From Candidatus Firestoneibacteriota bacterium (GTDB lineage Bacteria > Oederibacteriota > D2-FULL-39-29), in contig CAITEH010000012.1 of assembly GCA_903891415.1 (NCBI GenBank), forward strand, positions 1,136 to 65,135: 64,000 nt of DNA. The letters run 5' to 3'. Under the pieces are notes generated by a model. That model saw only the letters and a list, made by a program, of their open reading frames with translations, ran no database searches and had not been told where the DNA came from. A program made the position numbers and the translations under genes. This document shows positions 31,911 to 52,843 of this stretch, piece after piece (the stretch's first letter is position 1; every line of letters begins with the position of its first letter).

Positions 31911-31922
31911 CTGCGATTCAGG

Positions 31923-33022: not shown

Positions 33023-33039
33023 CTTCCGAGATAAGGGAA

Positions 33040-37953: not shown

Positions 37954-39249
37954 GGTGTTTAACATTTCTTTTTCGTAAAAACTTACGGTTTCTTCCACCA
38001 TCTTTTCCTGAGAATAGGAAACCAGCGCGCATTTTCTTCCGTTACTTCCAAACTCAGAGGCCTGTACCGGGTTTTCCATTATTTTAAGAAGTCCTTCCGC
38101 CAGGGCTTCCGGATCATTTGGTTTCACCAGGATACCGGCATTGCCCTTATTTACAAATTCCCTGTAGATACCGGAATCCGGAAGCACAACGGGAATACCC
38201 GAGGCCATGGCTTCAAGCACCGCAAAACCCCGGGATTCGGAAAAACGGCTGGGAACTGAAAAAACACTCAGGCCTTTTAGAAAATCAGCTTTTTCTTTAA
38301 GCCCGGGTACTCCGGAGTAATGGAACCTGTCCGACAGCCCCTCTTCTTTAAGGCGTTTTTTGCAATTCTTAAAATACACTTTGTGCCTCGCGCCCAGAGT
38401 AAGCCCGGCGGCCCAAAACTCCGCCTGCTTGCCGTATTTTTTTGCAAGCAGAATGAACGCTTCCACCAGCAGGTCAAAACCCTTGGCGGGCATTATCCTG
38501 GAAAGAAAGCCGATCTTGAACGGCTCAACGGCCCGCTTTGCCTCAGGTTTGTAATAGCCCGTATTTATTCCGAACGTCCGGGTCTCCACCCTGGCTTTAT
38601 CAACCGCGAGAAAATAAGCCATCTCCTCGGCATACGCTTTCGACGGGGCAAGGAATTTTTGAATATATTTTGTGTTCACGCGCATCAGTTCCTGGGCCTC
38701 CTTTGCAAAAGGAGCCGGGAGGTGGCTGATAAAATCTTCTTCCCCCATAAGCTGGCAGTAGATCCGGGCTTTAAGCTCTTTTTCTATAACAGGCGCGATG
38801 CCTATCAGCATGGAATTTGTGATGATAACTATGTCCGGCGTGCCGGCTTTTTTCATGGCTTCGACCAGGCGGGCCACTTCCCTCTGCTGATAACCCTCAT
38901 TACCTTTAAGGACCGAAACGGTCATGGCTCCCAGCCGGGCAGGGTCTATATCAATGGAAAAAGACATCATAAGTTTCAGCAGGGAAGGTGATTCCAGGAG
39001 TTTATCCAGAAGCCCGGGGCTTCTTTTTCTGAAAGGTTCAAAATTCTGTTCAAGAAAGGCGTTTATTCCAGAAAAATAGATCTTTTTTTCTTTCCGGGGA
39101 AGTTCAAAGTCAACTTTTACGGGGGTATAAAGCGGGTAGATAGAAACCTCGTGCCCTTTATTTATAAGCCCCTGAGCCAAATACATATCGTGCATACAGG
39201 CCCCGCAGTACATTTCCCCGGCCCCGGCCGTAATAAGGTCAATTTTCAT
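37945..39249 (-). CDS. Glycosyltransferase family 4 (GT-B, group 1)
   Basis: 434 aa. The C-terminal half LSVFSVPSRFSESRGFAVLEAMASGIPVVLPDSGIYREFV contains the GT4 E-x7-E region. Confidence 0.88.
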   Translation of the reverse strand: MKIDLITAGAGEMYCGACMHDMYLAQGLINKGHEVSIYPLYTPVKVDFELPRKEKKIYFSGINAFLEQNFEPFRKRSPGLLDKLLESPSLLKLMMSFSIDIDPARLGAMTVSVLKGNEGYQQREVARLVEAMKKAGTPDIVIITNSMLIGIAPVIEKELKARIYCQLMGEEDFISHLPAPFAKEAQELMRVNTKYIQKFLAPSKAYAEEMAYFLAVDKARVETRTFGINTGYYKPEAKRAVEPFKIGFLSRIMPAKGFDLLVEAFILLAKKYGKQAEFWAAGLTLGARHKVYFKNCKKRLKEEGLSDRFHYSGVPGLKEKADFLKGLSVFSVPSRFSESRGFAVLEAMASGIPVVLPDSGIYREFVNKGNAGILVKPNDPEALAEGLLKIMENPVQASEFGSNGRKCALVSYSQEKMVEETVSFYEKEMLNTPL

Positions 39250-39274: not shown

Positions 39275-39360
39275 GTCCATAAAGTCTATAAGGTCTAAAC
39301 GGTCTATAAGGTCCATAAGGTTCGTAAGGTCTGTAAGGTCTGTAAAGTCTATAAGGTTTG
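39275..39360 (+). repeat. Array of about 10 units of the 9-bp GTCYRTAAR repeat family (strict 9-nt phase)
   Basis: The array reads GTCCATAAA GTCTATAAG GTCTAAACG GTCTATAAG GTCCATAAG GTTCGTAAG GTCTGTAAG GTCTGTAAA GTCTATAAG GTTTGAAAA. It starts 26 nt from the GT4 start codon. Confidence 0.88.
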
Positions 39361-39398: not shown

Positions 39399-41006
39399 TT
39401 ATCCCTGATTTCTGATCTCTTTTTCAAGGTAAATGGCACCGGTCGGGCAGGCCCGGGCGCATTCTTCAGAAACTTTTTCCTGCAGTTTATTAAATTTCCT
39501 GTTGAAAGGGAGCCCTATTTTAGTTTTGAAACCCCTGCCAATATAGGCCATGCTGTCAAATTCCCCGTGTTTTTCGCATATTTTCACGCAAATACCGCAC
39601 ATGATGCATTTCCCTGATTCATAAACAACCCCGGTCTTTTTAATATCCCTGGAGAAACCCCGTTTTTCGCCTTTTAAAGCGTCCGGCTCCGCGTTATACT
39701 CGATCGCGTATTTCATTAAAAGACAGGCAGCCGCTTTCCGGCACTCACACCCCAGGCATCTCAGGGCTTCTTCGATAACCTCGCCTGCAGTAAAAGGCAG
39801 CCTTTCCTCCCCCGGGTTCTCCGTTATGATTTTCATATCCACCATACTGTTCAGAAAACGTCCGAGCTCCGGAGCTCCCTTTAAGAATAGCTCCTGCTCT
39901 TTTTCGGAAAGTTTTCCCATCCGCGCGGAAAACGGTTTTTTTTCTATCCCGGGCTCCAGGCCGTTCAAATACCTGTTTATGGAGCCGGCCGCCCGCCTCC
40001 CCACTTCGGAGGCCCTGACCGCCAGAGTCGTTTTGGGCCCGGCAAATACTCCCTTGATACCGGCCGCGTAAGTTTCTTTCTCAAAAACCACACCGTTTGG
40101 GCCGGTACGCACGCCTTCTTTTTCCAGGCCTACCAGATCCTCCGGGTTGCTCCCCGCGGCCAGGAAGACCGCGTTAAATTCCCGTAAAAGGTCTTTCAGG
40201 AATATATCCCTGTGCAGTACTTTTTTTTGTTCGAACTTTACGCCCAGCCCGGCTATTACGGCTATTTCTTTGTTTAAAATTTCATCCGGCAGCCTGTCTT
40301 TACTGATAGCATACCTTAGCGTTCCCCCCGCCTTTTCATTTTTATCATAAACCACCACTTCGTGACCGTATGCGCGCAGGTAATAGGCCGCCGTAAGCCC
40401 CGCGGGCCCGGCCCCTATTATGGCGGCCTTCTTACCGGTCGCTTTTGCGGCCTCCGGGCTGAAAGGTTTTCCTGAATAAAGGTCAAAATCGGCGGCGTAT
40501 CTTTTAAGATGGCAAATGGCGACCGGCGCGTCACCGTCCTTCCTTCTGCACACTTTCTCGCATACCTCCGGGCAAATTCTCCCGAGGACCGCCGGTAAAG
40601 CCACCTTCTGCTTAATGGTCCTGAGCGCGGCTCTATTGTCGCCTCTTTTAAGTTCGGTGATAAATTTTGGAATATCTATATGCGCAGGGCAGCCGGATTG
40701 GCAGGGCCCCAGGCAATCCCCCGTATGGTCCGACAGTAATAATTCCAGAGCCCGTTTTCTGGCCTGCCTTACCCTCGCGGTTTCTGTATGAATACTCATG
40801 CCGGCTTCCGCTTTGGCCGCGCAAGCCGGAACAAGCGCCGGTTTACCTTCCACTTCCACCACACAGATAAAACAGGTGGTCAAAGCCCCGATTTCCTTAA
40901 GGTAGCACATTGTGGGAATAGTAATACCGTTCCCGGCCGCGGCTTCCACCAGATTCTCGCCTTCCTTGAAATTATAGGTACTGCCGTTAATTTTTATTTC
41001 AGGCAT
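39399..41006 (-). CDS. GltD-like NAD(P)H/FAD oxidoreductase with N-terminal 2Fe-2S ferredoxin domain and C-terminal 4Fe-4S domain
   Basis: 535 aa. The N-terminus IKINGSTYNFKEGENLVEAA..GITIPTMCYL is a NuoG/HydA-type fer2 domain. Also present are the GltD alpha-helical FeS region (DHTGDCLGPCQSGCP, RICPEVCEKVCRR), the dinucleotide motif AAIIGAGPAGLTAAYYL, and C-terminal CIMCGICVKIC ... CARACPTGAI. Confidence 0.85.
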   Translation of the reverse strand: MPEIKINGSTYNFKEGENLVEAAAGNGITIPTMCYLKEIGALTTCFICVVEVEGKPALVPACAAKAEAGMSIHTETARVRQARKRALELLLSDHTGDCLGPCQSGCPAHIDIPKFITELKRGDNRAALRTIKQKVALPAVLGRICPEVCEKVCRRKDGDAPVAICHLKRYAADFDLYSGKPFSPEAAKATGKKAAIIGAGPAGLTAAYYLRAYGHEVVVYDKNEKAGGTLRYAISKDRLPDEILNKEIAVIAGLGVKFEQKKVLHRDIFLKDLLREFNAVFLAAGSNPEDLVGLEKEGVRTGPNGVVFEKETYAAGIKGVFAGPKTTLAVRASEVGRRAAGSINRYLNGLEPGIEKKPFSARMGKLSEKEQELFLKGAPELGRFLNSMVDMKIITENPGEERLPFTAGEVIEEALRCLGCECRKAAACLLMKYAIEYNAEPDALKGEKRGFSRDIKKTGVVYESGKCIMCGICVKICEKHGEFDSMAYIGRGFKTKIGLPFNRKFNKLQEKVSEECARACPTGAIYLEKEIRNQG

Positions 41007-41013
41007 ATTCTGT

Positions 41014-43377
41014 TCACTCCAGATCTACCGCTTCCGATTTGCATACGGCCCTGCAGGAATCGCATTTAATACATTTTCCCTGGTTTATTTCATGCTTTTT
41101 AAAGGGCTGTGCCTGTATGGCTTCTGACGGGCAGGCCTGCGCGCAAAGCGTGCAGCCGATGCATTTGTCGTTTACGGTATATTTGATCAGGTCCTTGCAT
41201 TTTTTAGCCGGGCACTTCCCTTTTACATGCGCCGCATATTCTTCTCTAAAATATTTAAGAGTGGTCAACACCGGATTGGGGGCCGTTTTTCCCAGGCCGC
41301 ACAAGCTCCCCGCCTTTATATCATTTGCCAGCGTTTCCAGCCGGGCAATATCTTCAAGCTGGCCGCGGCCCGCGCAGAACCTGCCGAGAAGCTCCAGCAT
41401 CCTTTTTGTGCCTATACGGCAGAAGGTGCACTTGCCGCAGGATTGGTCCTGGGTGAACTCAAGAAAAAATCTCGCGAAATCTACCATGCAGTCGGAATCA
41501 TCCAGCACGACCAGCCCGCCCGAGCCCATAATGGCGCCGGTCTCTGTTATCTTTTCAAAATCTATAGGCAGATCAGCCAGACTCTCGGGGATACAGCCCC
41601 CGGAAGGGCCGCCTATCTGGACCGCTTTGAATTTTCTCCCTTTTTTAACCCCGCCCCCGATACCTTCGACCACTTCTCTTATAGTTATCCCCATGGGCAC
41701 TTCTATCAGGCCGCCTCTTAGAACATTACCCGCGAGCGCGAAAACTTTGGTGCCCTTGCTCCTGGCGGTCCCTATCCCGGAATAATTTTCGGCGCCGTTT
41801 TTTATTATCCAGGGCACGCAGGCATAGGTCTCCACGTTGTTAATATTTGTCGGGCAGGCAAACAGGCCGCTTACCGCGGGGTACGGCGGACGGAAGGCCG
41901 GCATGCCGCGCCTGCCTTCTATAGAAGCTATAAGAGCAGTTTCCTCCCCGCAGATAAAAGCGCCGGCTCCGCGGAAAATATGAAGTTTCAAATTGAAACC
42001 TGTCCCCAGAATATTATTTCCCAGGAGCCCCTCTTTCTCGCACTCCGCCAGCGCGTGCCTGATGTTTTCCAGAGCCAGCGGGTATTCTTCCCTGATATAT
42101 AAATAACCCTCGTCAATGCCGATGGCAAAAGCGGCAAGAGCAATACCTTCAAGCACCCTGTACGGATAGGACTCCAATAACATCCTGTCCATAAAAGCGC
42201 CGGGATCACCCTCGTCCCCGTTGCAAATTATGTATTTCTTCCCGGCCCGGGAGGCCCTTGTGAGCTCCCATTTTAACCCGGTAGGAAAACCGGCTCCGCC
42301 CCTGCCCCTGAGCCCGGACTTCTTGACTTCAGAAATTATTTCCGCCGGCTGCAGGGACTTAAGCGCCTTTTCCAGCGCGGTAAAGCCGCCTTTTTCCTTA
42401 TATTCCTGAAGATCAAGCGGGTCCACTTCCCCGTAATTCTCAAGGACCAGCCTTTTTTGGGGGCCCAGAAAAGCGCAAGCCGGGCCTTTATCCAGAGCCA
42501 GAGGATCTATCTGCTCCGGCCCGTCGTAATACTCAAAGGTAAAAAAGTCATAACCTTTTTTAATTGTGTTCAAGAATTTCTTAACGGGCCCGGCCGGCAG
42601 GAGATGTTTATCACAGATAAGTTTTACATCCTCCGGTTTAACATCTGCATAAAACGTGGAAACGCCTTCCGGAGACACAACTTCGGTAAAAGGATTACTG
42701 TGGCACATACCCACGCAGCCGACCTTCTTGGTGACCGCTTCCAGCGAATTCCGGTCTATATATTCGTCAAAAGCATCCTTCACATCCTTGCTGCCGCTCG
42801 CGACACAGCAGGAACCGAGCCCGATCTTAATGACTGTTTTACCTTTGGCTTCCGGGACGGATGTTTCCGGAAGGCCTTTTTGCAGATTGCCGGAGACGGT
42901 ATTCAGAAAAAGGCCGATCATATCGGGTATGGACTGGGCGGTCACATGCCCGTAGGTAAGCCCGTCTATCTTGACCACGGGCGCCAGCGTGCAGCACCCG
43001 AAGCAGGCGGCCTTCTCCACCGTAAAGAGCCCCGTAACGTCGGTGTCTTTACCTTCTTCTATCTTCAAATAACGCCTGACCGCATCCGTTATCAACGGCG
43101 CGCCTTTAACATGGCAGGCCGTTCCGTGACAGACCGCAAGGACATGTTTACCCACCGGCGTATGCCGGAACTGGGTGTAAAAAGTGGAAACGCCGGTTAT
43201 CTGCGCTCTGGTAATTTCGGTAAGCTCGCAGACCCGCTGCAGCGCTTCCTCCGGCAGGTAGCGGAAATGTTTCTGCAACTCCTGTAAAATAGGAATTACC
43301 AGCCTGCTCTCTGTGCCCAGCGAGGCCACGATGGTTTTAACTACTTCAAGGTCTATGTGCTCTTTGTTTTCGTTCAC
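41014..43377 (-). CDS. Fused NuoE-like + NuoF-like NADH-binding FMN/FeS flavoprotein (HydC-HydB/BfuC-BfuB type)
   Basis: 787 aa. The GTG start overlaps the upstream stop (GTGA). It has a NuoE thioredoxin-like 2Fe-2S (VCHGTACHVKGA...CFGCCTLAP), a second 2Fe-2S-like insert (GSCCVASG...VGCVGMCH), a NuoF core (RGRGGAGFPTGLKW, SCGKCTFCRIG, SLCGLGKTAPNP) and a C-terminal 2x[4Fe-4S] (CIGCTLCAQACP, CIKCDSCRAVC). Confidence 0.9.
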   Translation of the reverse strand: MNENKEHIDLEVVKTIVASLGTESRLVIPILQELQKHFRYLPEEALQRVCELTEITRAQITGVSTFYTQFRHTPVGKHVLAVCHGTACHVKGAPLITDAVRRYLKIEEGKDTDVTGLFTVEKAACFGCCTLAPVVKIDGLTYGHVTAQSIPDMIGLFLNTVSGNLQKGLPETSVPEAKGKTVIKIGLGSCCVASGSKDVKDAFDEYIDRNSLEAVTKKVGCVGMCHSNPFTEVVSPEGVSTFYADVKPEDVKLICDKHLLPAGPVKKFLNTIKKGYDFFTFEYYDGPEQIDPLALDKGPACAFLGPQKRLVLENYGEVDPLDLQEYKEKGGFTALEKALKSLQPAEIISEVKKSGLRGRGGAGFPTGLKWELTRASRAGKKYIICNGDEGDPGAFMDRMLLESYPYRVLEGIALAAFAIGIDEGYLYIREEYPLALENIRHALAECEKEGLLGNNILGTGFNLKLHIFRGAGAFICGEETALIASIEGRRGMPAFRPPYPAVSGLFACPTNINNVETYACVPWIIKNGAENYSGIGTARSKGTKVFALAGNVLRGGLIEVPMGITIREVVEGIGGGVKKGRKFKAVQIGGPSGGCIPESLADLPIDFEKITETGAIMGSGGLVVLDDSDCMVDFARFFLEFTQDQSCGKCTFCRIGTKRMLELLGRFCAGRGQLEDIARLETLANDIKAGSLCGLGKTAPNPVLTTLKYFREEYAAHVKGKCPAKKCKDLIKYTVNDKCIGCTLCAQACPSEAIQAQPFKKHEINQGKCIKCDSCRAVCKSEAVDLE

Positions 43378-45077
43378 TTATTTCCTATGCAAACAAGATT
43401 CTTTTCGCTTCTAATAAATATTCTGCCGCCCGCAAAGGCAGGCGAGGCCGAACATTTCTCGCCCATATCCATGGTTTTGATCAGTTTGCCGCCGTAGCTT
43501 ACCGTATAAACCTTGCCCTGCTGGGAAGGTATATAGACGGTGCCGTTTACCAGGGAAGGGGAAGCCCAGAAATCATCTTCCAGCGCAAGCTTCCAGAGGG
43601 TTTTTCCTGTTTTAATATCCTGCCCGGTTATCAAAGAGTTCATCGCGACCACAAGAATTTTCCCGTCGGTGACGGGCGTGTTTATGGCCTGATTTTCTTC
43701 CTGCATGGACCAGGCTATTTTTGTTTTAGTTACCTCTCCAAAACCCCCGGGAGTGATAGCGGTAACGGTCGAGACCGAGCCGACGTCAATAACGACAACA
43801 ACGCCGCCGCCATAGACCGCGGAAGTGGAGATCTCTCCGGCAAGGCATTTTACCCGCCAGAGCTCTTTCCCCGTTTCCGGGTCATAGGCTATCACCTGCT
43901 CCGGCCCCGTGGTTATTATTTCATTTTTCCCGTTATGTTCAATTATTATGGGCGTGCCCCAGGAAGCGCCGTCCGGCCTTTTCGTCTCCCAGACGGTCTT
44001 GCCTGATTTTTTGTCCAGCGCGGCTATTTTTGAAAGCCCTTCTCCGCCCAGGTCCAGCTGCACTATGATATTTTTTTTCCAGAGTACCGGGGAAGAAGAA
44101 AGGCCGTAAGTATTTTCCGTTTTCCCGAAATATTTGACCCAGAGCTGTTTTCCTTTCAGGTCAAAGCAAACCAGGTGATCCGTGGCAAAGAGCGCAAAAA
44201 CATGTTCCCCGTCGGTCACCGGTGTGGGCGCGGCATAACCCGCCCCGCCGGCGTCTTCCGACATTATTTCAATATCTTCCAGCTTGACCGGAACCATTAC
44301 GCTGGAAGCCCATTTACAGCTGCCTTTTACCGCATCATAGCAGAGCACCTTCAGGACTTTGCCTTCACTGCCGGTAAGGAAAAGGTTATCCTTATAAACC
44401 ACCGGGGAACTGTAGGATCTCGCGGACAGGGCCGTTTTCCAGAGAATATTTTTTCCTGTTTTCAGGTCCCATTCCCCCGCGTAATTCCCTTCCTTCACCA
44501 GCCCGCTGCCGGCCGGGCCGCGAAAACTATTCCAGCTCGAAGACAGGTCGATTTCTTTTTCGTTCCCGGCAGCCGCCGCCTCAAAGCCCATTTTTCTGGC
44601 GCCCAGGACCGCGAACACCCCGAGCAGGCCCAGGAGGACGAGTCCCGTTACCGCCGCAGCGGCCAGAGAGTTATTAATTCCCGCGCCCCCGGCCCTATAA
44701 ACTGTTTCACTGCCCTTTTTTACCTCAGGGATCCTTCCGGTCAGGGCCCGTTCAAAACGCAGAGCGAGCAGAGCCAGCAGGAGAAAGACAATAAATATAT
44801 TTTTACCTTGCTCCAGAATAACGCTCTTTCTGAAAAAAGCGGCCCTTTCCTTCAGGTCTTTTTCCCTGAACTCCCGGAGCAGATTCTCGTGATCCGGATA
44901 TTTATCAAGTTTGGCCTTGAGGGCTTCCAGCGCCGGGGAATCCTTAATATTGCCCTGCTGGCCCGTTAGATAATAGCCGGCCAGGAAAAGCGCGGCAATA
45001 AGAGCAATAGCCGCGGACGCAACGGCCGCCTGCTTTAACGCGAGGCGGAATATGTTATTTAACGTTTCTCTGTCCAT
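43374..45077 (-). CDS. Membrane-anchored (about 3 TM) PQQ-like beta-propeller repeat protein
   Basis: 567 aa. The N-terminal ~170 aa carries three hydrophobic helices. These are followed by repeated xxALDxxTGKxLW-type blades (VLCYDAVKGSCKW, LVCFDLKGKQLW, IAALDKKSGKTVW, VIAYDPETGKELW, ITGQDIKTGKTLW). Confidence 0.85.
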   Translation of the reverse strand: MDRETLNNIFRLALKQAAVASAAIALIAALFLAGYYLTGQQGNIKDSPALEALKAKLDKYPDHENLLREFREKDLKERAAFFRKSVILEQGKNIFIVFLLLALLALRFERALTGRIPEVKKGSETVYRAGGAGINNSLAAAAVTGLVLLGLLGVFAVLGARKMGFEAAAAGNEKEIDLSSSWNSFRGPAGSGLVKEGNYAGEWDLKTGKNILWKTALSARSYSSPVVYKDNLFLTGSEGKVLKVLCYDAVKGSCKWASSVMVPVKLEDIEIMSEDAGGAGYAAPTPVTDGEHVFALFATDHLVCFDLKGKQLWVKYFGKTENTYGLSSSPVLWKKNIIVQLDLGGEGLSKIAALDKKSGKTVWETKRPDGASWGTPIIIEHNGKNEIITTGPEQVIAYDPETGKELWRVKCLAGEISTSAVYGGGVVVVIDVGSVSTVTAITPGGFGEVTKTKIAWSMQEENQAINTPVTDGKILVVAMNSLITGQDIKTGKTLWKLALEDDFWASPSLVNGTVYIPSQQGKVYTVSYGGKLIKTMDMGEKCSASPAFAGGRIFIRSEKNLVCIGNK

Positions 45078-46350
45078 CTCTTTTCAACTGCTCCTGTCTT
45101 TCCACGGGGCAATCCATAAAACACCTGCCGCAGGAAAGGCACCTGGCGCCGTCCGGTTCATAGATCTCCCGTTTAGGTTTTCTTGAAGCATACAACAACT
45201 GCAGGCCCAGCACAAACATGATCCAGAGCCCCAGCAGGGAACCGCCTTTTTTGAACTTATTCTTGAGCGCCTCCGCCCTGGTAAAAAGAAGCTCCGGGCT
45301 CTCCCCGCTGTCCAGATAAACTTTCACCTCGTCAGAAATACCGCCGGGGCCGGGACCCTCTTCATAATAGGCGTGTATTTCCACGGCCAGCCCGACTTCT
45401 TTATTATAGGCAGAACAGAAAGCGCCGGTGTAGTTCCCGAGTATGACTCCCGCGAGCAGGCCGGAAATAAATAAAATTGCAGGGAGAGCACCTTTCTTGA
45501 TATTTCTTTTTTCCGGCTTTTCAGGTTTATTGATGGCGCCAAAAGGACAGGAGTCCTCGCAGAGCCGGCAGACAATGCATTTATCCGGAGTCACGGTCAC
45601 TTTATTCCTGCTCACCAGGGAAAGAGGTTTTAACAGCGCGCCATAGGGACAGATAAAACGGCAATACGGGCGCCCGATAAAAAGCGAGAGTACCAGAAAT
45701 ATTCCTCCGGTCACAAGCATAGAGAAAGGCCCGGTAAGCCGGAAGAACGGAACAAAAGGATCGTATTTACAGATAAGAAAAGTTGAGCCGGTCACCGCGA
45801 AAAGTACGGCCAGGCCGAGATAGATATAGGCGAACAGGGAAAGAGAACGGTCAAGCCAGCGCGGTATTTTCAGCTCTTTTATCAAAAGCAGGTCCTGCAG
45901 CGCGCCATGCGGGCAGGCGCCGCCGCAATAGGCCCGGCCTGCAAAAAGCGAAGCCGCCAGGGGAATAATAAAAATCAGTACCGCCGTAAACGGCATATAA
46001 TAGCCGGGTGAGGAAAGCGCCAGGGCGGCATCCTGTACCGCGCCTATGGGACAGATACAGCCCTCCTTATAAAATCCAAAATAAAGAAGAGAGAACAAGG
46101 AGAGGAGCATGATAATATTTCTGGATCTTTTTTTGAGAGAAGCCCAGGCAGAAAGTAAAATAACCGCAAGCAGAATAAAAATATCCAGATATGCCAGAAT
46201 TTCGGCCCGGGCGGGAGGCCTCTGCATGACCGGCAGGGAGTAATTGGACTCAAACTCCGGAGGCGGGAATTTATATTCCGCAAAAACCGCCCCGAGGGCC
46301 AGACAGAGAAATATTGAGGCAATAAAAAGTCTTTTATAATTTATTTTCAT
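45055..46350 (-). CDS. NapH/NosH/MauN-like polytopic 4Fe-4S membrane protein
   Basis: 431 aa with AAGGAAGG RBS and multiple TM helices. It has two CX3CP motifs (YCGGACPHGAL, YCRFICPYGAL) and two ferredoxin motifs (CIVCRLCEDSCP, CLSCGRCFMDCP). Confidence 0.85.
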   Translation of the reverse strand: MKINYKRLFIASIFLCLALGAVFAEYKFPPPEFESNYSLPVMQRPPARAEILAYLDIFILLAVILLSAWASLKKRSRNIIMLLSLFSLLYFGFYKEGCICPIGAVQDAALALSSPGYYMPFTAVLIFIIPLAASLFAGRAYCGGACPHGALQDLLLIKELKIPRWLDRSLSLFAYIYLGLAVLFAVTGSTFLICKYDPFVPFFRLTGPFSMLVTGGIFLVLSLFIGRPYCRFICPYGALLKPLSLVSRNKVTVTPDKCIVCRLCEDSCPFGAINKPEKPEKRNIKKGALPAILFISGLLAGVILGNYTGAFCSAYNKEVGLAVEIHAYYEEGPGPGGISDEVKVYLDSGESPELLFTRAEALKNKFKKGGSLLGLWIMFVLGLQLLYASRKPKREIYEPDGARCLSCGRCFMDCPVERQEQLKRDGQRNVK

Positions 46351-46909
46351 TTCCTTCCTTGGTTATATAGGGGCTGGCGGCCGGGATCCGGACAAAAGCA
46401 TTTGCCGGGCAGGCACTGGCAATAAGGCATTCATTACAGTTTTTGCACCGGTCGTGCCGGACCTGCAGCTGGAGAGAGCCGTTCCCGAAAGCGGTACAGC
46501 CGCTCACGCACTTCCCGCAGCCGACACAGAGTTTTTCCTTGATAGTGTATTCATAGTAGGGCTCTTCAACGAATTTTCTTTTTATCGCCCCGGTCGGGCA
46601 AAGTTGATTCTCCCCCCCGCTGTTCAGGTCGCGCTGGCCGGCCTGGAAAAACCCGAAACACAAATTACAATAACCGCAGATGGAGAAGTTATGCACGCAT
46701 TTGACCGCGGAGATCCGAAGGACGCATTCCGTCGCGCACCTGCCGCATTGCGTGCATTTTGCCGGGTCTATCTGCCAGACGGCGGAACTTTTTTTTGAAC
46801 GCGCGAGCGCGGCGCCGCCCGCCGCCCCGAGCACCGCCAGAAAAATACCCCGGCCGGTATTTTTCAGGAATTCCAAACGCGATATTTTTTTTGTTTTATT
46901 TTCTTCCAT
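46334..46909 (-). CDS. NapG/MauM-like periplasmic 4x[4Fe-4S] ferredoxin with Tat-like signal
   Basis: I prefer the ATG at 46909 (MEENKTKKISRLEFLKNTGRGIFLAVLGAAGGAALA). There are four Cys clusters: CTQCGRCATEC, CGYCNLC..CP, CVGCGKCVSGC and CKNCNECLIASACP. The 39-aa extension in the track ORF overlaps the upstream small gene. Confidence 0.8.
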   Translation of the reverse strand: MEENKTKKISRLEFLKNTGRGIFLAVLGAAGGAALARSKKSSAVWQIDPAKCTQCGRCATECVLRISAVKCVHNFSICGYCNLCFGFFQAGQRDLNSGGENQLCPTGAIKRKFVEEPYYEYTIKEKLCVGCGKCVSGCTAFGNGSLQLQVRHDRCKNCNECLIASACPANAFVRIPAASPYITKEGNENKL

Positions 46910-47138
46910 GGCCTGTTTCCCTGACCGTCCATTTTGAATTAAAAGACCCTTTTGCGTCCAGCGAGCAATTAGTTGCGTCTTTGCACGCGGCGCACCGGCT
47001 GTAAGCCCGGCAAGCCGTTCCGCCAAAGATATTTTTGGCCGTCAGGATACCGGTAACTCCGCCAAGCAGAGCCAGCCCCGCGTAGCGGAGAGACTTTTCA
47101 AGCAGTTCCCGCCGTGAATATTTATTTTTTAAATTCAT
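46896..47138 (-). CDS. 80-aa Tat-signal peptide-bearing 4-Cys protein (unknown family)
   Basis: An ATG at 47138, preceded by GGGGG, gives MNLKNKYSRRELLEKSLRYAGLALLGGVTGILTA (canonical SRRxLL twin-arginine motif). The mature part is ~45 aa: KNIFGGTACRAYSRCAACKDATNCSLDAKGSFNSKWTVRETGHGRK. It overlaps the next start by 14 nt. Confidence 0.5.
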   Translation of the reverse strand: MNLKNKYSRRELLEKSLRYAGLALLGGVTGILTAKNIFGGTACRAYSRCAACKDATNCSLDAKGSFNSKWTVRETGHGRK

Positions 47139-47172
47139 GTGACCCCCGGATCTTCCGCCAGAGACGGATAAT

Positions 47173-48423
47173 TTACTTAGCCCCGCTTTCAGCAATATCC
47201 AGGCAGAGCATTTCGGTCATGCTCCTGATAACCAGTTTTCCGCCGGAAACAGCCAGCGGAGCCCACATCTGCTTGCCTGTTAACGCGGCAAATTTCGAAA
47301 TTTCCTTATATCCTGAAGCGGTAGGTTCCAGAAGAAATAAAGTGCCGGTATCCCCGAGAACATACAGCAGGCCGTCTATTATCAGGCAGGGACCAAGCCC
47401 GACTTTAACTTTGGAGCTCTTCCAGAGGACCTTGCCGTTCAGGTCCAGGCAGTATATTTCACCTGAGGCCCCGTAAATATTGTCCTTATACAATATCGGT
47501 GTTTGGACTTTCGAACCAAAATCTTTTTCCGTTAGCCTGGTAATTTCCTCGGTAACGACCTCATTCCCGTTCTTTTTCAGCCCCAGGATAAGGCTTCCGG
47601 CGCCATAACCACCCGTAAAGAATATTCTATCCTTGCCGATAACAAGGGGCGCGGGAATATTCGCCGTTTTAACGGTCCACCCCGGGTGGGTCCAGCGAAG
47701 TTTACCGTCAGCGGCGGCAACCCCGAAGGCGCCTTTTTTGGAACAACCGATATAGAATTTTTCCTTTTCAAAATCCATAACGGTTATCGAATTATGGGTC
47801 ATGCCCCAATTGCTTTCACACGGAGTTTCCCAGGCAGTTTTCCCTGAAGCAAGGTCAAAAGCCGCCATTAAGACCTTATCGCCCGCAACCAGAATGATAA
47901 CTTTGTCCCCGTCTATAAGGGGATTTTGGCCCGCGTACCAGCCGGGCACCTTACTGCCGTATTCCTTGACAAGGTTCTTCTGCCAGGCAAGTTTCCCGCT
48001 GTCTTTTTCCAGGCAGGAGACCAGGCAGTTAGTCCCCAGGGTCACCACATATTTGCCGTTAACAGCCGGCACCGTCCTGGAGTAATCATACTGAGAGGGT
48101 TTTATTTTTGAGGGGTAGCCGTAGGACCAGGCCTCTTTCCCGTCCTTCATATCGAGGCATTTTACCGTGTCTTCTTCTTTGTCGGTGTTATAGTCGAGAA
48201 TAAACAGTTTATCTTCAAACACCACCGGGGCGGCAAACCCGCCTCCGACTTTAACCCGCCAGAGTTCTTTGGGGCCTTCCGCGGGCCATTTCTTCAGCAG
48301 TTTTTTCCCGGTCGTAACCACCCCGTTCCTGTTTTCCCCCAGAAACTGCGAGAAATTGTCCGCCAGCACGGCGGAAACGGCCAGCAGCACGAAAAGCAGC
48401 AACTTTATTTTAGACATATACAT
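47173..48423 (-). CDS. Secreted PQQ-like beta-propeller repeat protein
   Basis: 416 aa with a Sec signal (KIKLLLFVLLAVSAVLA). Blades include VKCLDMKDGKEAW, VSCLEKDSGKLAW, MAAFDLASGKTAW and IYCLDLNGKVLW. It is a clear paralog of the 49767-51170 product. Confidence 0.85.
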   Translation of the reverse strand: MYMSKIKLLLFVLLAVSAVLADNFSQFLGENRNGVVTTGKKLLKKWPAEGPKELWRVKVGGGFAAPVVFEDKLFILDYNTDKEEDTVKCLDMKDGKEAWSYGYPSKIKPSQYDYSRTVPAVNGKYVVTLGTNCLVSCLEKDSGKLAWQKNLVKEYGSKVPGWYAGQNPLIDGDKVIILVAGDKVLMAAFDLASGKTAWETPCESNWGMTHNSITVMDFEKEKFYIGCSKKGAFGVAAADGKLRWTHPGWTVKTANIPAPLVIGKDRIFFTGGYGAGSLILGLKKNGNEVVTEEITRLTEKDFGSKVQTPILYKDNIYGASGEIYCLDLNGKVLWKSSKVKVGLGPCLIIDGLLYVLGDTGTLFLLEPTASGYKEISKFAALTGKQMWAPLAVSGGKLVIRSMTEMLCLDIAESGAK

Positions 48424-48741
48424 ACCTTCCTCCTTTGAAAATTATTGGTATTGTCAAACTTCTTTTAGTAAATCTCTGCCTGCATCTGCTTTTACGAGCA
48501 CTTCTTAGGATTCAGATTGCCGCCTCAATTTATTTCTTGTCATGTTGAGCCATTTTTCTCTTGGCGAAACATCCCTGCTTTTCAGACTTAAAATACAGAG
48601 ATCCTTCGTCAAAAGCGACTCAGGATGACAAGGCTATTCAGATAACTACTTCTGCTATCACAAGTCTGCTTTTTTCTCCATATCTTACATTTTCTGTTTG
48701 ACACTACCGAATCATACCGGACCTTTTTTCAGCCGGTTCTT

Positions 48742-49767
48742 TTATTGTTTTTGTGAAAATATTCTCACGGTACTTTCAACCGGGTCCAAAGCGTAGATCC
48801 TGTTCTTTGAGTCCACCGCCAGGGGAATACCCGCGTTTTTTTCATTAAAAGTACCGGGACCCGCCACAACTCCGAGAAATTTCCCGGTCCTGTCGTATTT
48901 TTTGATCCTTAACACGCCCTTCTCAGCAGTAACAAAATTCCCCTCTCTATCTATGACGAAATTAACGGGATTACAGCAGCCTATAAATTCATCAATATTT
49001 ACCCCGTGTTTTCCCCAGGCGCCGAGAAAAACCCCTTCAGAGGAATAGTTCTCCAGCTGCAGCCGTCCGGTATCAGCCACCCAGAGTTCCCCGCTGCCGT
49101 CAAGCTCAATATCCATATGCGGGCTGGGAATGATAAAACCCCTGCCGGCACCTTCGGCTTTCCCTGCTATCTTTCCCAGGAACCTGCCCTGCAGGTCAAA
49201 CTTTGAGATCCTTCTATTCCCGGCATCTGCCACAAATATATATTTATCGCTGGCTTTTACTGCCGTGATAAAACTGAATTCGCCGTCACCCCGGCCTTTT
49301 TTTCCGAAAGTAAGGATCTCTTTTGAAATTATATTTACCCTGTCCCTGCCGGCCAGAAGCAGGGCGCCTGAAGCACCGAAAGCGGCCGCGCCCGCATTTT
49401 CCAGCTTGACCGGGAGGCCCGTTATCTTTCCTGTGCCTTTATCGTTACAGGCCAGCAGGCCTTCAGTTGACACGACAAAGATCAACCCTTCTTTTTTATC
49501 CACCGCCAGCCCAAAAGGTTCTTTAAGCCCCGTCTTAAACTTTGCAGTTTCACTGTAGCTAAGCAGTTTGGGGTCATAATTCTTAAGCGCCGCCAGATCA
49601 TATTTAAAGTTATCCGGCAGGGTGTTTTTTCCCGTCCCCGCGTTACCCGCTTTGGGCAGTGCGGACCTGAAACTAAAAAGGTATTCCGCGAGAAAATACC
49701 CTGCAAAACTCCCGAGGGCCACAATAAATATCGCGGTAACTATTTTTGAACGCTCTCTGCCGGCCAT
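48742..49767 (-). CDS. N-terminally anchored NHL-repeat beta-propeller protein
   Basis: 341 aa with one TM helix (IVTAIFIVALGSFAGYFLAEYLF). It has NHL-type blades (ASDKYIFVADAGNRRISKFDLQGRFLGKI; GELWVADTGRLQLENYSSEGVFLGAWG; NFVTAEKGVLRIKKYDRTGKFLGVV). Its ATG shares one base with the upstream stop (TAATG). Confidence 0.85.
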   Translation of the reverse strand: MAGRERSKIVTAIFIVALGSFAGYFLAEYLFSFRSALPKAGNAGTGKNTLPDNFKYDLAALKNYDPKLLSYSETAKFKTGLKEPFGLAVDKKEGLIFVVSTEGLLACNDKGTGKITGLPVKLENAGAAAFGASGALLLAGRDRVNIISKEILTFGKKGRGDGEFSFITAVKASDKYIFVADAGNRRISKFDLQGRFLGKIAGKAEGAGRGFIIPSPHMDIELDGSGELWVADTGRLQLENYSSEGVFLGAWGKHGVNIDEFIGCCNPVNFVIDREGNFVTAEKGVLRIKKYDRTGKFLGVVAGPGTFNEKNAGIPLAVDSKNRIYALDPVESTVRIFSQKQ

Positions 49768-51170
49768 TATTGTTTCACCTTCACGCAGACCAGTTCCGTA
49801 AGGTCTTTAAGCAGTAATTTCCCGTCCGCCAGGGCCATAGGCGCCCACGCCTCGTGCCCCTGAAATACTTTTGCTTTGCCCGTTTCGTTGTACCCGGAAT
49901 TTTCCGCTTCCGCAAAATACAGATACCCGCTGGTATCATTTAAGGCCAGCAGCATGCCGTCGGCAATAAGGAAGGGCCCCAGGCCGAATTTTTTTTCCGG
50001 GCCGCTCTTCCATAACTGTTTCCCGGACGTATCGATACAGGCCAGCTGCCCGTCCTGAATTATTCCGTAAAAATTGCCCTGGTAATAGACCGGGGTGTGC
50101 TGTTGAGAAGAAAATACGGAAGCTTTCACCCTGAATAATTCCTTGAGCCCGTACTTGTCCGCTTCCTTTGTAACCTGCACATACCTGGCTCCGGAATCAT
50201 AGCCGCCGGTAAAAAGGAGCTTATCCTTATCCACGATAACAGGAGCCGGCACATTCGCTATATTTATCTTCCAGGTTTCGTCCAGCCAGAGAATTTCGCC
50301 TGTCTTTGCCGAGACCGAAACAACTCCCTTCGTGGCGCAATAGATATACTGGCGTTCTTTGGGAAAATCCAGTACGGAAACGGAAGAATGCGTCATTTTG
50401 TAATCCCCGGGGTTCTTCGCGGACCAGCGCGCCCGGCCGGTCGCCAGGTCAAGCGCCGTCATAAGTACTTCCTTGCCGCCGGGAGCCAGTATTACCAGGT
50501 CCTCCTCTATCAGGGGACACTGCCCGGCATACCATTCCGGGACTTTTGTGCCGTATTCTTTGACAAGGTCTTTCTTCCAAACCAGCTCTCCCGAATCAGC
50601 CTTCAAACAGGTCACCTGGCACATAGGGCCGAGGGCTACCAGATATTTGTCATTTACCGCGGGAACGGTCCTGGACATGCCGTGATTTCTTTTTATTTTC
50701 TGAGGGTAATTAAACTTCCAGATCTCTTCCCCGTTTTTAAAGGAAAGGCACCTGATGGAATCTTCTTTATTTTCCTGGTCATAATCTATAAGGTAAACCC
50801 TGCCCCTGTTAATTACAGCGCCGGCATAACCTTCGCCTGTCTTTACGCTCCAGAGCACAGGCAGCCCTGCTGCAGGTATTTTTTTTATCAGTCCTGTTTC
50901 ACTGCTAAGCCCGTCCCTGCCGGGCCCTCGAAACTGCGGCCAGCTGCCTTTTTCGGCGGAAGGCGCGCCTTTTCCTCCGGTCAACCCTCCTGAAACAGCT
51001 TTCTTACCGGTTTGTTCGGGAAGTTTAAGCCCTTCCACCTTCTCTTCATACGGGTTCCGTATTTCCAGCCCCCCGGGTGCCGGAGTCCTCAGCCACCGGA
51101 CAATAAAAAAAGCGCCGCAAAGGATTATTAAAAAAGAAATTATCAGTCCCGGATATTTAGTGTTTTTCAT
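49767..51170 (-). CDS. N-terminally anchored PQQ-like beta-propeller repeat protein
   Basis: I prefer the ATG at 51170 (MKNTKYPGLIISFLIILCGAFFIV) over the track TTG at 51194. It is a paralog of 47173-48423, for example YAGQCPLIEEDLVILAPGGKEVLMTALDLATGRARW versus YAGQNPLIDGDKVIILVAGDKVLMAAFDLASGKTAW. Confidence 0.85.
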   Translation of the reverse strand: MKNTKYPGLIISFLIILCGAFFIVRWLRTPAPGGLEIRNPYEEKVEGLKLPEQTGKKAVSGGLTGGKGAPSAEKGSWPQFRGPGRDGLSSETGLIKKIPAAGLPVLWSVKTGEGYAGAVINRGRVYLIDYDQENKEDSIRCLSFKNGEEIWKFNYPQKIKRNHGMSRTVPAVNDKYLVALGPMCQVTCLKADSGELVWKKDLVKEYGTKVPEWYAGQCPLIEEDLVILAPGGKEVLMTALDLATGRARWSAKNPGDYKMTHSSVSVLDFPKERQYIYCATKGVVSVSAKTGEILWLDETWKINIANVPAPVIVDKDKLLFTGGYDSGARYVQVTKEADKYGLKELFRVKASVFSSQQHTPVYYQGNFYGIIQDGQLACIDTSGKQLWKSGPEKKFGLGPFLIADGMLLALNDTSGYLYFAEAENSGYNETGKAKVFQGHEAWAPMALADGKLLLKDLTELVCVKVKQ

Positions 51171-52278
51171 TGCCGCCTGCTTCACTGCCGCCAAAACAAT
51201 AGATCAACCCGCTGCTGTTGCCTGCCACCATTTTTCCGTCTGAGACCGCGGTGGAACCCGAAACAGGACTGCCCGTGTCAAATTCAAATATCTTTTTACC
51301 CGTATCCAGGGCCGCGCCGTAAAGTTTACCGTCCTCGCTTCCAAAAAAAACGTTCTCACCCGCGATAACAGGGGAAGATTCTATTTTACCGCCCGCGGTA
51401 AAGGCCCATTTAAGCCGGCCGGTTACAGGTTCCAGGCACCGGAGAAAATTCCCGTTGGTGCCGAAAACCACGGCGCTGTCATTGACCGCCGGGGAGGAAA
51501 AACATTGTTCATTGTTTTCGTCATAATATTCCCAGAGTATTTTTCTTGAAACGATATCCGCGCAGAAGAATTTTCCCGTAAGAGAGGACACATAGACCCT
51601 GTCCTTATACACCGCCGGGGAGGCGGCAATATTGCTTTCCAGCGGTATCAGGAATTTTTCCAGGCCGGTTGCCAGGTCCACGAACCTGAAGTTACCGTCG
51701 CAGCCCGCCACTACGGCATTATTCCCGCATAAGGCAGGTGACCCGTGAATGGGCGAGTCCAGGGTTAATTTCCATACCGGCCGGCCATCATTCGCGTCAA
51801 GCGCGTAAAGAGTACCGTCGTAACCGCCAAAAATTATTTTGTTGCCGCTGCAGGCCGGAGAAGAAATGAGCTGTTTTTCGGATTCAAACTCCCAGAGTTT
51901 CTTTCCGGTTCCCGCTTCCAGCGCGTAGAACATTCCGAGGTCATCGCCAAAAAAAACTTTTCCGCCGGTTACCAGAGCGGAAGACCTGATCTCCCCTTTC
52001 ACCGGAAACGTCCAGAGTAATTTTCCCGTGCCGGGGTCGAGACAGATGAATTTATCCGTACAGCCGATATAGGCACCCGTCTTCGTAAGCGCGGGCGTGG
52101 AATAGACGGTTTTTTTCGCGTCATAAGTCCATTTAATTTTCAGATCTTTCGGGAGCTTTGAGGCCGCAACACCTGTCGCAGCAGGATCACCACGGAATTG
52201 GAGCCATTCGGCGGATAAACCGGCAGTTAAAATCACTAAAAGTAGCGCTGTATTTGCAATTCTACTTCTTATCTTCAT
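51157..52278 (-). CDS. Secreted BamB-like PQQ beta-propeller repeat protein
   Basis: 373 aa with a signal peptide and regular blades (FICLDPGTGKLLW, FYALEAGTGKKLW, LYALDANDGRPVW, FLRCLEPVTGRLKW, LYGAALDTGKKIF). Confidence 0.88.
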   Translation of the reverse strand: MKIRSRIANTALLLVILTAGLSAEWLQFRGDPAATGVAASKLPKDLKIKWTYDAKKTVYSTPALTKTGAYIGCTDKFICLDPGTGKLLWTFPVKGEIRSSALVTGGKVFFGDDLGMFYALEAGTGKKLWEFESEKQLISSPACSGNKIIFGGYDGTLYALDANDGRPVWKLTLDSPIHGSPALCGNNAVVAGCDGNFRFVDLATGLEKFLIPLESNIAASPAVYKDRVYVSSLTGKFFCADIVSRKILWEYYDENNEQCFSSPAVNDSAVVFGTNGNFLRCLEPVTGRLKWAFTAGGKIESSPVIAGENVFFGSEDGKLYGAALDTGKKIFEFDTGSPVSGSTAVSDGKMVAGNSSGLIYCFGGSEAGGNEKH

Positions 52279-52297: not shown

Positions 52298-52376
52298 GTC
52301 TGTAAAGTCCATAAAGTCTATAAAGTCTAAAAGTCCATAAGGTCCGTAAAGTCTATAAGGTCTCAAAGTCTGTAAG
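52298..52376 (+). repeat. Array of about 9 units of the 9-bp GTCYRTAAR repeat family
   Basis: The array reads GTCTGTAAA GTCCATAAA GTCTATAAA GTCTAAAA GTCCATAAG GTCCGTAAA GTCTATAAG GTCTCAAA GTCTGTAAG. It begins 20 nt from the start codon at 52278. Confidence 0.88.
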
Positions 52377-52456
52377 GGCCTTTATGGGCGCAATAAATTA
52401 TACAAATTAAACACTGCTAATACAATGTTAATAAAATGCTTATTGTTTCTTCTTTA

Positions 52457-52843
52457 TCATTTCTTGCTGCCGGAAATTTTATTCAGCAAAAAACCTGCGT
52501 GGGCGGTCAACGCGCCTGCGGTATCGGCCAGCCAATCAAAAATATCCATGCATCTGCCGGGTGTAAATTTCTGGTGAAATTCATCGCTTGCGCCAAAGAG
52601 GGAAGCCAAAAAAACGGCCCGGATAACGGCAGAGCCGGCTTTCAGGGCATGGCCTTTTACCAGCGCGAGATAAATAAGCAGGGAAAAAATGAAATACTCC
52701 GCCATATGCCCTATTTTGTCCGCATTTGGCAGAAAATTCAGCAACCTTGCGGCTGCAGGGTCAGGATCTTCGGACATGGAAAAAATAATAACGGCCCAGA
52801 TCACCGCCGGCAGCCAGTAGAGATAGTTTTTCTTTTTCATCAT
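52457..52843 (-). CDS. VanZ-family membrane protein
   Basis: 128 aa with four hydrophobic helices. KIGHMAEYFIFSLL and SDEFHQKFTPGRCMDIFDWLADTAGAL are VanZ-like motifs. Confidence 0.85.
   Translation of the reverse strand: MMKKKNYLYWLPAVIWAVIIFSMSEDPDPAAARLLNFLPNADKIGHMAEYFIFSLLIYLALVKGHALKAGSAVIRAVFLASLFGASDEFHQKFTPGRCMDIFDWLADTAGALTAHAGFLLNKISGSKK

Follow-up and report, generated by a model that had tools for sequence, protein, structure and literature searches.

Within a 64,000-nt stretch of the metagenomic contig CAITEH010000012.1 from a Candidatus Firestoneibacteriota bacterium (the window, meaning the whole stretch of DNA analyzed), we identified ten successive minus-strand genes, g1–g10, that link a cytoplasmic flavoprotein pair to an iron–sulfur (Fe–S) membrane protein and a set of periplasmic beta-propellers. 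Together with a downstream glycosyltransferase gene, these ten genes are one conserved functional module, and we consider it somewhat more probable than not that it performs NADH-driven, possibly ferredoxin-co-driven, electron export to a periplasmic propeller complex. Judged by its predicted proteins, the module would be a hybrid, in a new combination, of Bfu-type flavoproteins (NfnABC, StnABC, HydABC) and Fe–S conduits of the NapGH/NosGH/MauMN type. A sequence-only reading of this DNA had proposed a coupled 'trans-envelope' redox system; its core, a coupled cytoplasm–membrane–periplasm module, is borne out by synteny in distant phyla and by the fusion of one propeller (g8) to the membrane protein (g7), whereas 'trans-envelope' was an overstatement, as passage across the inner membrane alone is implied and nothing points to the outer membrane.

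The list of open reading frames (ORFs) was examined between 37 and 55 kb of the window, where the cluster runs from 52278 down to 39399 and is followed by the glycosyltransferase gene:

51157..52278, minus strand: g1, secreted 8-bladed PQQ_2/ACSF4-type beta-propeller of 373 residues, with a signal peptide and without a lipobox
49767..51170, minus strand: g2, beta-propeller of 467 residues with an N-terminal helix anchor
48742..49767, minus strand: g3, 6-bladed NHL propeller of 341 residues with an N-terminal helix anchor
48424..48741, minus strand: g3–g4 gap of 318 nt, the sole long intergenic gap
47173..48423, minus strand: g4, secreted PQQ_2 propeller of 416 residues, a g2 paralogue
46896..47138, minus strand: g5, 80-residue twin-arginine (SRRELLEK) peptide with one hydrophobic stretch and a four-Cys motif, C-x5-C-x2-C-x5-C
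46334..46909, minus strand: g6, NapG-like polyferredoxin of 191 residues
45055..46350, minus strand: g7, polytopic NapH/NosR-family Fe–S membrane protein of 431 residues
43374..45077, minus strand: g8, three-transmembrane-segment anchor plus periplasmic PQQ_2 propeller, 567 residues
41014..43377, minus strand: g9, BfuC–BfuB fusion of 787 residues
39399..41006, minus strand: g10, BfuA/NfnA-like subunit of 535 residues
37945..39249, minus strand: GT4/GT1 glycosyltransferase of 434 residues (PF00534, 9.6e-30)

Frames overlap by 14 nt at g1/g2 (51170/51157) and g5/g6 (46909/46896), by 17 nt at g6/g7 (46350/46334) and by 23 nt at g7/g8 (45077/45055); g2 and g3 meet in a TAATG at 49767, and g8 and g9 in a GTGA overlap (43377/43374), such that the g8 frame overlaps both g7 and g9. 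Gaps of 34 nt and 7 nt separate g4 from g5 and g9 from g10 (41014/41006), and a strong ribosome-binding site precedes g4. Public gene calls for the same contig gave identical proteins of the ten lengths listed above. Together, the ORF list, these calls and profile searches in Pfam and NCBIfam reproduced the consecutive genes of the sequence-only reading with their starts, overlaps and domains, including the propeller, NHL, Fer4, NuoE/NuoF and FAD domains it had named. Its claim that 48424-48741 is the only real gap holds insofar as no other gap is long, but it left the 34-nt g4/g5 gap unlisted. Internal terminators, which it had raised as a way in which the cluster might split into independent units, find no counterpart here: terminator-like sites occur at the frequency of shuffled sequence. 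A scan for promoter-like sites gave an uninformative signal, and an Rfam scan of 37-55 kb, the 318-nt gap included, matched no family. Because a related Firestonebacteria locus carries an extra MORN-repeat gene at the g3–g4 position, this gap is a lineage-variable insertion point. It also contains an element, GTCATCCTGAGTCGCTTTTGACGAAGGATC (GTCATCCTGAG...GAAGGATC; 48600-48629, minus strand), that occurs once in the window and resembles the short intergenic repeats of many environmental genomes.

Conservation was assessed over the best 80 loci, whose ORFs were compared with the window proteins; frequencies count those loci that had enough flanking DNA. The loci derive from Planctomycetota, Verrucomicrobiota, Lentisphaerae, Bacteroidota and KSB1, and include Pirellulales, Sedimentisphaerales, Cytophagales, Prolixibacteraceae, Draconibacterium, Mariniphaga, Labilibaculum, Marinifilum, Ancylomarina and Gaoshiqia. 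A near-universal order emerged: PQQ-propeller, NHL propeller, small Cys peptide, four-cluster ferredoxin, NapH-like protein, transmembrane propeller, NuoEF and GltD-like protein. Counterparts of these genes, in matching order, were found in the cultured Bacteroidota species Mangrovibacterium diazotrophicum and in one Planctomycetota metagenome-assembled genome. The ferredoxin gene (g6) lies directly upstream of the NapH-like gene in 64/75 loci and the transmembrane propeller (g8) downstream of it in 67/70, while the NHL (g3), NuoEF (g9) and GltD-like (g10) genes are found nearby in 65/70, 55/60 and 49/56 loci, respectively; a g2-like propeller precedes the NHL gene in 52/63, and the g5 peptide is kept between NHL and ferredoxin in ~55 loci. 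Verrucomicrobiota frequently carry a minimal set, and we take its seven genes (NHL, peptide, ferredoxin, NapH-like, transmembrane propeller, NuoEF and GltD-like) as the core. Such recurrence of one order across phyla puts the arrangement far beyond chance. The closest named homologues belong to Candidatus Firestonebacteria, and the g7 family is large: a word-indexed search returned more than 5796 matches at E<=1e-10, an exhaustive search returned 355 representative clusters (50% identity) at E<=1e-30, and NapH-like relatives were present in at least 586 genomes when one genome per species was scanned.

Natural fusions of g7 to g8 are the strongest single evidence for linkage. Among the best 150 representative g7 homologues (50%-identity clusters), ten are fusion proteins of 973-1136 residues, and because their C-terminal halves align with nearly full-length g8 (E 1e-56 to 1e-89), the NapH-like protein and the transmembrane propeller occur as a single polypeptide in at least ten lineages; one such fusion reads as Fer4_5 + Fer4 + PQQ_2 by Pfam. 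Apparently lengthened g7, g8 and g9 frames from GC-rich loci were also considered as fusions and set aside, being mostly ORF-calling extensions. The sequence-only reading had made its proposal depend on linkage of the propellers to the Fe–S and flavoprotein genes in other genomes, and this linkage holds in five or more phyla, with one propeller fused to the NapH-like protein.

At the cytoplasmic end, g9 and g10 belong, by their domains, to the Bfu family as far as the BC core is concerned, with a putative bifurcating activity. The g9 protein combines PF01257 (2Fe-2S_thioredx, residues 14-154, 4.5e-45), PF01512 (Complex1_51K), PF10589 (NADH_4Fe-4S) and Fer4_21, and is laid out as a NuoE-like [2Fe-2S] cluster, a thioredoxin-like domain, a NuoF NADH/FMN site with its [4Fe-4S] cluster and a C-terminal 2x[4Fe-4S] arm. 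Residues 182-787 match the B subunits of solved complexes (NfnB 9n5u_B at 1.9e-219, 9bov_B, 8oh5_B and HydB 8a6t_B), and all cluster ligands, including Cys83/88/125/129 of the NuoE-like [2Fe-2S] cluster, are conserved in 60 orthologues. The g10 protein carries Fer2_4 ([2Fe-2S]), Fer4_20 (2x[4Fe-4S]), an FAD Rossmann domain and Fer4 (NuoG-type clusters), and it retains the ligands of the N-terminal [2Fe-2S] cluster, the two Fer4_20 clusters and the NuoG-type clusters, as well as the FAD GxGxxG. Its matches to 9bov_A, 9n5u_A (NfnA) and 8oh5_C (1e-96 to 1e-87) are split, query 7-301 aligning with chain 9-302 and query 289-527 with chain 440-673. It follows from this split that ~137 residues, the NAD(P)H Rossmann domain (chain 303-439), are missing from g10. 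The Fdh/NuoG-like C-terminal domain is absent as well, since g10 ends at chain 673-700 of 963-1178-residue proteins. GxGNTAxD is likewise absent in 53/55 g10 orthologues and kept in two from Verrucomicrobiota; these proteins of ~709-720 residues (L016, 15531-17660; L032, 6382-8544), with GGGNTAMD ... RRTRREMP, represent a natural 'before' state of the domain loss. The ancestral g10 was probably a complete Nfn-type A subunit.

Relative to NfnABC/StnABC and HydABC, g9 thus has every BfuC and BfuB domain, and g10 aligns with NfnA/StnC over the N-terminal [2Fe-2S] region, the NfnL/GltD-like 2x[4Fe-4S]+FAD region and the NuoG-type clusters. Unlike in NfnABC/StnABC, BfuC and BfuB form one polypeptide, g10 is without the NAD(P)H domain (53/55 orthologues) and always without the Fdh-like domain, and the genetic ties of the module run to membrane and periplasmic proteins instead of a soluble third substrate. 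The lack of the NADPH site sets the module apart from the Nfn/Stn transhydrogenases, to which it does not belong. The earlier assignment of a NuoEF-plus-GltD pair therefore stands at the level of domains, with the amendment that the pair is specifically Bfu-type and its GltD-like subunit lacks the NAD(P)H site. In NfnABC, electrons follow the path FAD-A7-A6-A3-A2-A1-[B1-FMN-C1]-B3/B4-ferredoxin, and the Bfu architecture in general offers NAD(H), a low-potential arm and the BfuA path as its three ports (PMC11829005). BfuA is the usual attachment point of a 'third substrate' module, and a survey of the family left 17 BfuB clades without assigned function and mentioned no PQQ or NapH partner (PMC9304861).

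The membrane step is represented by g7, which matches PF12801 (Fer4_5, 5.6e-18) and has about seven hydrophobic segments. Domain and motif scans confirmed the polytopic NapH-like protein of the sequence-only reading, with two CX3CP motifs (CGGACP, CRFICP) and two cytoplasmic [4Fe-4S] motifs of the form CxxCxxCxxxCP (CIVCRLCEDSCP, CLSCGRCFMDCP), alongside a conserved N-terminal FPPP(D/E)FE segment and invariant Cys98, Cys100 and Cys194. A positive-inside reading of the helices would place these three cysteines on the periplasmic side, with the membrane between them and the CX3CP and [4Fe-4S] motifs on the cytoplasmic side. The partner g6 matches Fer4 families in Pfam and holds 17 conserved cysteines in the window protein (16-17 across orthologues), enough for four [4Fe-4S] clusters. 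Twin arginines precede it in 76/77 orthologues, as expected of a NapGH-type four-cluster partner, and the window protein is the sole exception: its leader reads S-R-L-E-F-L-K (codons 10-12, 46859-46867). Of the earlier claim of an exported NapG/MauM-like ferredoxin plus an 80-residue twin-arginine translocation (Tat) peptide, the domains and the intact SRR of g5 were upheld, but the window g6 has R-L and no twin arginine; R-L in g6 beside SRR in g5 suggests either co-export or weakened export. The g5 consensus over ~55 loci is RRxF(L/I)K ... C-x5-7-C-x2-C-x5-6-C-x-LP(Q/E)A, and family searches gave a weak Zn-ribbon match alone. Treating g5 as an analogue of a MauA/MauB-like quinocofactor peptide plus propeller was dropped; its Cys pattern differs, and a maturase gene is lacking.

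This pairing of a polytopic Fer4_5 protein (two CX3CP, two [4Fe-4S]) with a Tat-type four-cluster ferredoxin is shared with NapGH, NosGH/NosR and MauMN; the nos and mau clusters also place a beta-propeller at the periplasmic end, as here, and an ABC (ATP-binding cassette) ATPase/permease adjoins the cluster in many genomes. Unlike NapH and NosR, g7 has three extra helices and the FPPPDFE segment and lacks an FMN-binding domain, and its scores stay far below model cut-offs: 39.3 bits for NapH TIGR02163 (cut-off 213), 36.9 bits for PRK09477 (cut-off 234) and 47 bits for NosR NF046105 (cut-off 1000). A search of solved structures with g7 returned generic Fer4 fragments and no homologue. Unlike NapGH, NosGH and MauMN, the cluster has no NapA, NosZ, MauAB, cytochrome, Cu or Mo protein, and its proposed electron source is a dedicated NADH flavoprotein, instead of or beside the quinone pool. 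The earlier reading had likewise seen no recognisable terminal enzyme, and this was confirmed: no CxxCH motif occurs among the cluster proteins, and no molybdopterin or cytochrome gene was found in the window cluster or in the 80 loci, hence no napA/napB linkage. NapH-like proteins are seen as modular trans-membrane electron conduits for varied extracytosolic oxidoreductases, most of these systems being uncharacterised, with partners such as ExaA and NirS and none with a NuoEF-type donor (PMC8238504). The flavinylated NapH-like systems (Meheust et al. 2021, PMC8238504) share this modular concept, PQQ-fold propeller partners included, yet are defined by an ApbE-flavinylated FMN-binding domain, and Pfam detected neither an FMN_bind nor an ApbE domain among the cluster proteins. 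Given the sub-cut-off scores and the lack of FMN_bind/ApbE and of NapA/NosZ, the cluster is not NapGH, NosR or a flavinylated NapH-like system.

At the periplasmic end, Pfam assigned g1 to PF13570 (3.8e-71) and PF13360 (1.3e-37), g2 (8.4e-24), g4 (6.3e-33) and g8 (1.1e-28) to PQQ_2, and g3 to NHL (2.3e-7). The topologies proposed earlier for the five propellers were recovered by hydropathy and, for g2 and g3, AlphaFold2 (AF2) models: predicted signal peptides on g1 and g4, one N-terminal helix on g2 and g3, and three hydrophobic segments in g8. Loci among the best 80 carry four to nine propeller genes; g2 is the best conserved accessory propeller, and g4 varies by lineage in copy number and position, Bacteroidota having 1-5 g4-like copies upstream of g2. 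The possibility that these are ordinary BamB proteins, raised earlier as an objection, did not hold up. Scores against BamB TIGR03300 were 127.6 (g1), 40.2 (g2), 49.1 (g4) and 78.7 bits (g8) versus a cut-off of 285, and none of the four has the lipobox Cys of a BamB-type lipoprotein. The PQQ-dehydrogenase models TIGR03075/TIGR03074 gave 27-83 bits versus cut-offs of 480/833, so that at the level of family scores the propellers are not PQQ dehydrogenases either. The PQQ_2 propellers of the cluster share with BamB and cofactor-less PQQ-fold proteins ('empty quinoproteins') the 8-bladed PQQ_2 fold, but unlike BamB they are anchored by a helix or three transmembrane segments, not by lipid, and carry family-specific strand motifs.

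The AF2 model of g2 (mean predicted confidence, pLDDT, 89) shows a helix at 5-28 and then a propeller of the PQQ_2 type, which can be superposed on 8-bladed BamB; the best Foldseek matches are BamB and the cofactor-less tetrathionate hydrolase, about equally (TMq ~0.6, 13-16% identity, E ~1e-17 to 1e-15), and sequence searches of solved structures found BamB alone (E ~7e-4). Its conserved strand motifs, KRNHG-SRT-P, MTHSS, AGQ-P and QHTP, would line the central channel, since, judging from the AF2 model, they fall on the innermost strand of successive blades. The g3 model (pLDDT 88) best matches TRIM/Thin NHL domains and the PknD sensor domain by Foldseek, and by sequence TRIM-type NHL domains alone among solved structures. 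A vicinal Cys pair in g3, F261-x-G263-C264-C265-N266-P267, stands out: GCCNP is invariant in 34 homologues and >=90% conserved in 71 locus orthologues. Because these matches of confident models are at fold level only, no enzyme class can be assigned to g2 or g3, and the propellers may be scaffolds, substrate binders or not-yet-recognisable enzymes.

The conserved unit extends beyond the ten genes of the sequence-only reading, which all belong to it, to the glycosyltransferase at 37945-39249. This protein has a conserved N-terminal Y-C-x-x-C and gave generic GT4 matches in searches of families and solved structures. In another Firestonebacteria locus its gene comes after the GltD-like gene, in Bacteroidota and KSB1 after a g1-like propeller gene, and in Pirellulales it lies before g2 with a g1-like gene; among loci with full flanks, g1-like genes occur in 27/43 and the glycosyltransferase in 21/43. 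In about 22-27 loci, an ABC ATPase and a ~1100-residue MacB_PCD/2xFtsX permease adjoin the g1-like/glycosyltransferase pair. The window itself contains no MacB-type ABC transporter.

The sequences show the gene order, the domains and cofactor motifs, the missing NAD(P)H domain, synteny across phyla and g7–g8 fusions; from these we infer an electron path, including subunit contacts beyond g7–g8, its direction, a part for ferredoxin or bifurcation, and an acceptor. The FMN of g9 would oxidize NADH, possibly together with reduced ferredoxin at the C-terminal 2x[4Fe-4S] arm; since nothing is missing from the BfuBC core, reduced ferredoxin might act as a co-donor (confurcation), or, alternatively, one branch might be raised to low potential. 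Electrons would then travel via g10 and/or the g9 Fe–S chain to the cytoplasmic [4Fe-4S] clusters of g7, and cross the inner membrane through its Cys-ligated centres, with CX3CP inside and Cys98/100/194 outside. On the periplasmic side they would be taken up by the Tat-type ferredoxin g6, and perhaps by the four-Cys peptide g5, and the chain would end on a cofactor-poor propeller assembly around g8, attached to g7, and g3, with g2, g4 and g1 serving as more variable accessory or substrate-binding units. Along such a path, the system would export NADH-derived, possibly bifurcation-boosted low-potential electrons for a periplasmic reductive reaction; our favoured guess for the substrate is a thiol/disulfide or a small molecule held by the propellers.

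Several points weigh against this proposal. Sequence does not fix the direction of electron flow, and the trans-membrane electron mechanism of NapH-type proteins is not established, no structure having been solved. The FAD of g10 has no obvious substrate after loss of the NAD(P)H domain, export of g6 is less certain in the window organism because R-L replaces RR, and no catalytic cofactor site is recognisable in the propellers by profiles or in the g2/g3 models. An internal promoter could lie in the 318-nt gap before g4, and the scheme leaves unexplained the part of g1, the glycosyltransferase and the ABC transporter, which are no more than facultative neighbours.

Four other explanations were weighed. 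It is very improbable that the genes are chance neighbours, the propellers being BamB-type factors or generic periplasmic proteins beside a soluble NuoEF/GltD oxidoreductase: public annotations do name homologues 'outer membrane protein assembly factor BamB' or 'polyvinylalcohol dehydrogenase', and BamB is the best structural match of g2, but synteny over five or more phyla, the g7–g8 fusions, the overlapping frames, BamB scores of 40-128 bits against 285 without a lipobox, and four to nine propeller genes per locus leave this explanation already largely refuted. Inward flow, in which one or more propellers oxidize a periplasmic donor and electrons pass via g6/g7 to a Bfu module that bifurcates them to NAD+ and ferredoxin, is unlikely. 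It would fit the proximity of NapH-like proteins to periplasmic PQQ alcohol dehydrogenases, a proposed electron source (PMC8238504), and the fact that the cofactor-less PQQ-fold enzyme tetrathionate hydrolase is one of the closest structural matches to g2. For NAD+ and ferredoxin to be reduced by bifurcation, however, a donor near -400 mV is required, and no metal, flavin, haem or PQQ signature suited to oxidizing such a donor is seen in the propellers, with 27-83 bits against 480 for PQQ-dehydrogenase models. A quinone-linked role is a little harder still to credit: g7 would form a NapH-like quinol/quinone site, and the system would be an NADH:quinone oxidoreductase, possibly bifurcating, with a second, low-potential electron passed to the periplasmic ferredoxin. 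NapH is regarded as the quinol-oxidising subunit of NapGH (as cited within PMC8238504), the Bfu core requires one high- and one low-potential partner (PMC11829005), the loss of the g10 NAD(P)H site leaves a port without a soluble substrate, and quinone-linked Nuo-Bfu complexes have been predicted earlier (PMC9304861). Set against these arguments are the 39 bits of g7 versus the NapH cut-off of 213, the failure to identify a quinone-binding motif, and a conserved coupling to five to seven periplasmic proteins that would be superfluous for a simple NADH:quinone enzyme.

It is also improbable, though not far-fetched, that the electrons serve maturation or maintenance, as with NosR/NosGH for NosZ, MauMN for methylamine dehydrogenase, or CcoG for cbb3 oxidase, and thus build, repair or keep reduced an envelope component; the targets could be the adjacent Cys residues of the NHL protein, envelope proteins that have become oxidised, or some glycoconjugate on which the glycosyltransferase and the MacB-type ABC transporter act. 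The parts parallel those of nos clusters (NapH- and NapG-like proteins, a beta-propeller, an ABC ATPase and its permease), and the MacB_PCD/FtsX ABC pair, g1 and the glycosyltransferase are conserved neighbours, yet about half of the loci lack the transporter and the glycosyltransferase, and the window lacks the transporter. The invariant GCCNP of g3 would suit such a role, as would the 9-bp repeat array type (see below) upstream of both the cluster and a Bat 'aerotolerance' operon, although arrays of this type could simply be general intergenic elements. An earlier proposal, cited in PMC3557215, had Bat proteins exporting reducing power to the periplasm, but their role is itself unproven. Maturation is moreover largely a special case of outward flow, and the cluster has no target enzyme linked to it. 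Involvement in sulfatase maturation, considered because of the sulfatase-rich taxa and a sulfatase in the window, is speculative.

Periplasmic reducing power without quinones or cytochromes is poorly understood, as are orphan NapH-like proteins and unassigned Bfu clades, and the cluster joins three such puzzles: an unassigned Bfu-type flavoprotein, an orphan NapH/NapG-like conduit and the abundant 'BamB-like' propellers. It is conceivable, though we would currently bet against it, that the PVC group, Bacteroidota and their allies share a widespread, haem-independent and so far unrecognised way to power periplasmic chemistry, in which a Bfu module bolted to a NapH-type conduit sends electrons from NADH, at ferredoxin-like potential, across the inner membrane to new propeller reductases or scaffolds that use cysteines or an unrecognised cofactor. 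Bifurcation driving trans-membrane electron export, if true, would be a new mode of bioenergetic coupling, and catalytic propellers would be a new enzyme class. We found no published description of the cluster in the full-text literature, subscription journals aside, which is not proof of absence; the nearest accounts were general frameworks (PMC9304861, PMC11829005, PMC8238504). Because the hundreds of carrier species include cultured ones, such as Draconibacterium orientale, Marinifilum flexuosum, Mangrovibacterium diazotrophicum, Gaoshiqia sediminis, Labilibaculum and Ancylomarina, the function is directly testable by genetics and biochemistry.

The sequence around the cluster contains tandem arrays of a 9-bp unit, GTCTATAAR (GTCTATAAG/A on the plus strand), with 4-9 copies at four window sites, given here without strand:

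52298..52377: ~9 copies, 20-99 nt upstream of the g1 start
39275..39357: 9.2 copies, in the space separating the g10 stop from the glycosyltransferase gene, 26-108 nt before the start of the latter
37836-37951: at the 3' end of the glycosyltransferase gene
34276-34310: ~250 nt upstream of the MoxR/Bat operon

Searched as a dimer, this unit has 13 matches versus 0.02 expected, and a weak copy lies upstream of the g1 homologue in the related Firestonebacteria locus L084 (1947-1964). The arrays could be either a shared regulator-binding array or a genome-wide intergenic repeat. The operon at 24622-34029 (minus strand) is a complete Bat 'aerotolerance'-type operon encoding a MoxR AAA ATPase, BatA/BatB VWA proteins, TPR proteins and BatD, and is tied to the redox cluster solely by this common array. 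An intergenic 38-bp tandem repeat (32833-33023; 5 copies, 88% matches, unit CCCACCACAAAGCGTTGGTGGATTTCACTGCCGTTCAA, internal hairpin CCACCA/TGGTGG) lies directly downstream of the MoxR-like gene, before the next ORF.

Directly upstream of g1 (52457-54675), the window encodes a 611-residue Peripla_BP_6/ANF-receptor-like protein and a VanZ-like protein, a pair absent from this position in other phyla that also precedes the cluster in L084. At the end of the window, a tyrosine integrase gene is followed by an AEP-type primase gene (TOTE AEP + PriCT-1; 58729-61155), within a 58-64 kb stretch of 34-41% GC versus ~48% elsewhere in the window; this region is probably an integrated mobile element. At the opposite end, a polysaccharide-degradation run (3132-24521) encodes DUF4838/GH20b-like, CBM9, F5/8 type C, NosD-like beta-helix and GH28 proteins, together with a sulfatase (20873-22171) and an IclR regulator, and the host appears to be a glycan degrader, as are many other taxa that carry the cluster.

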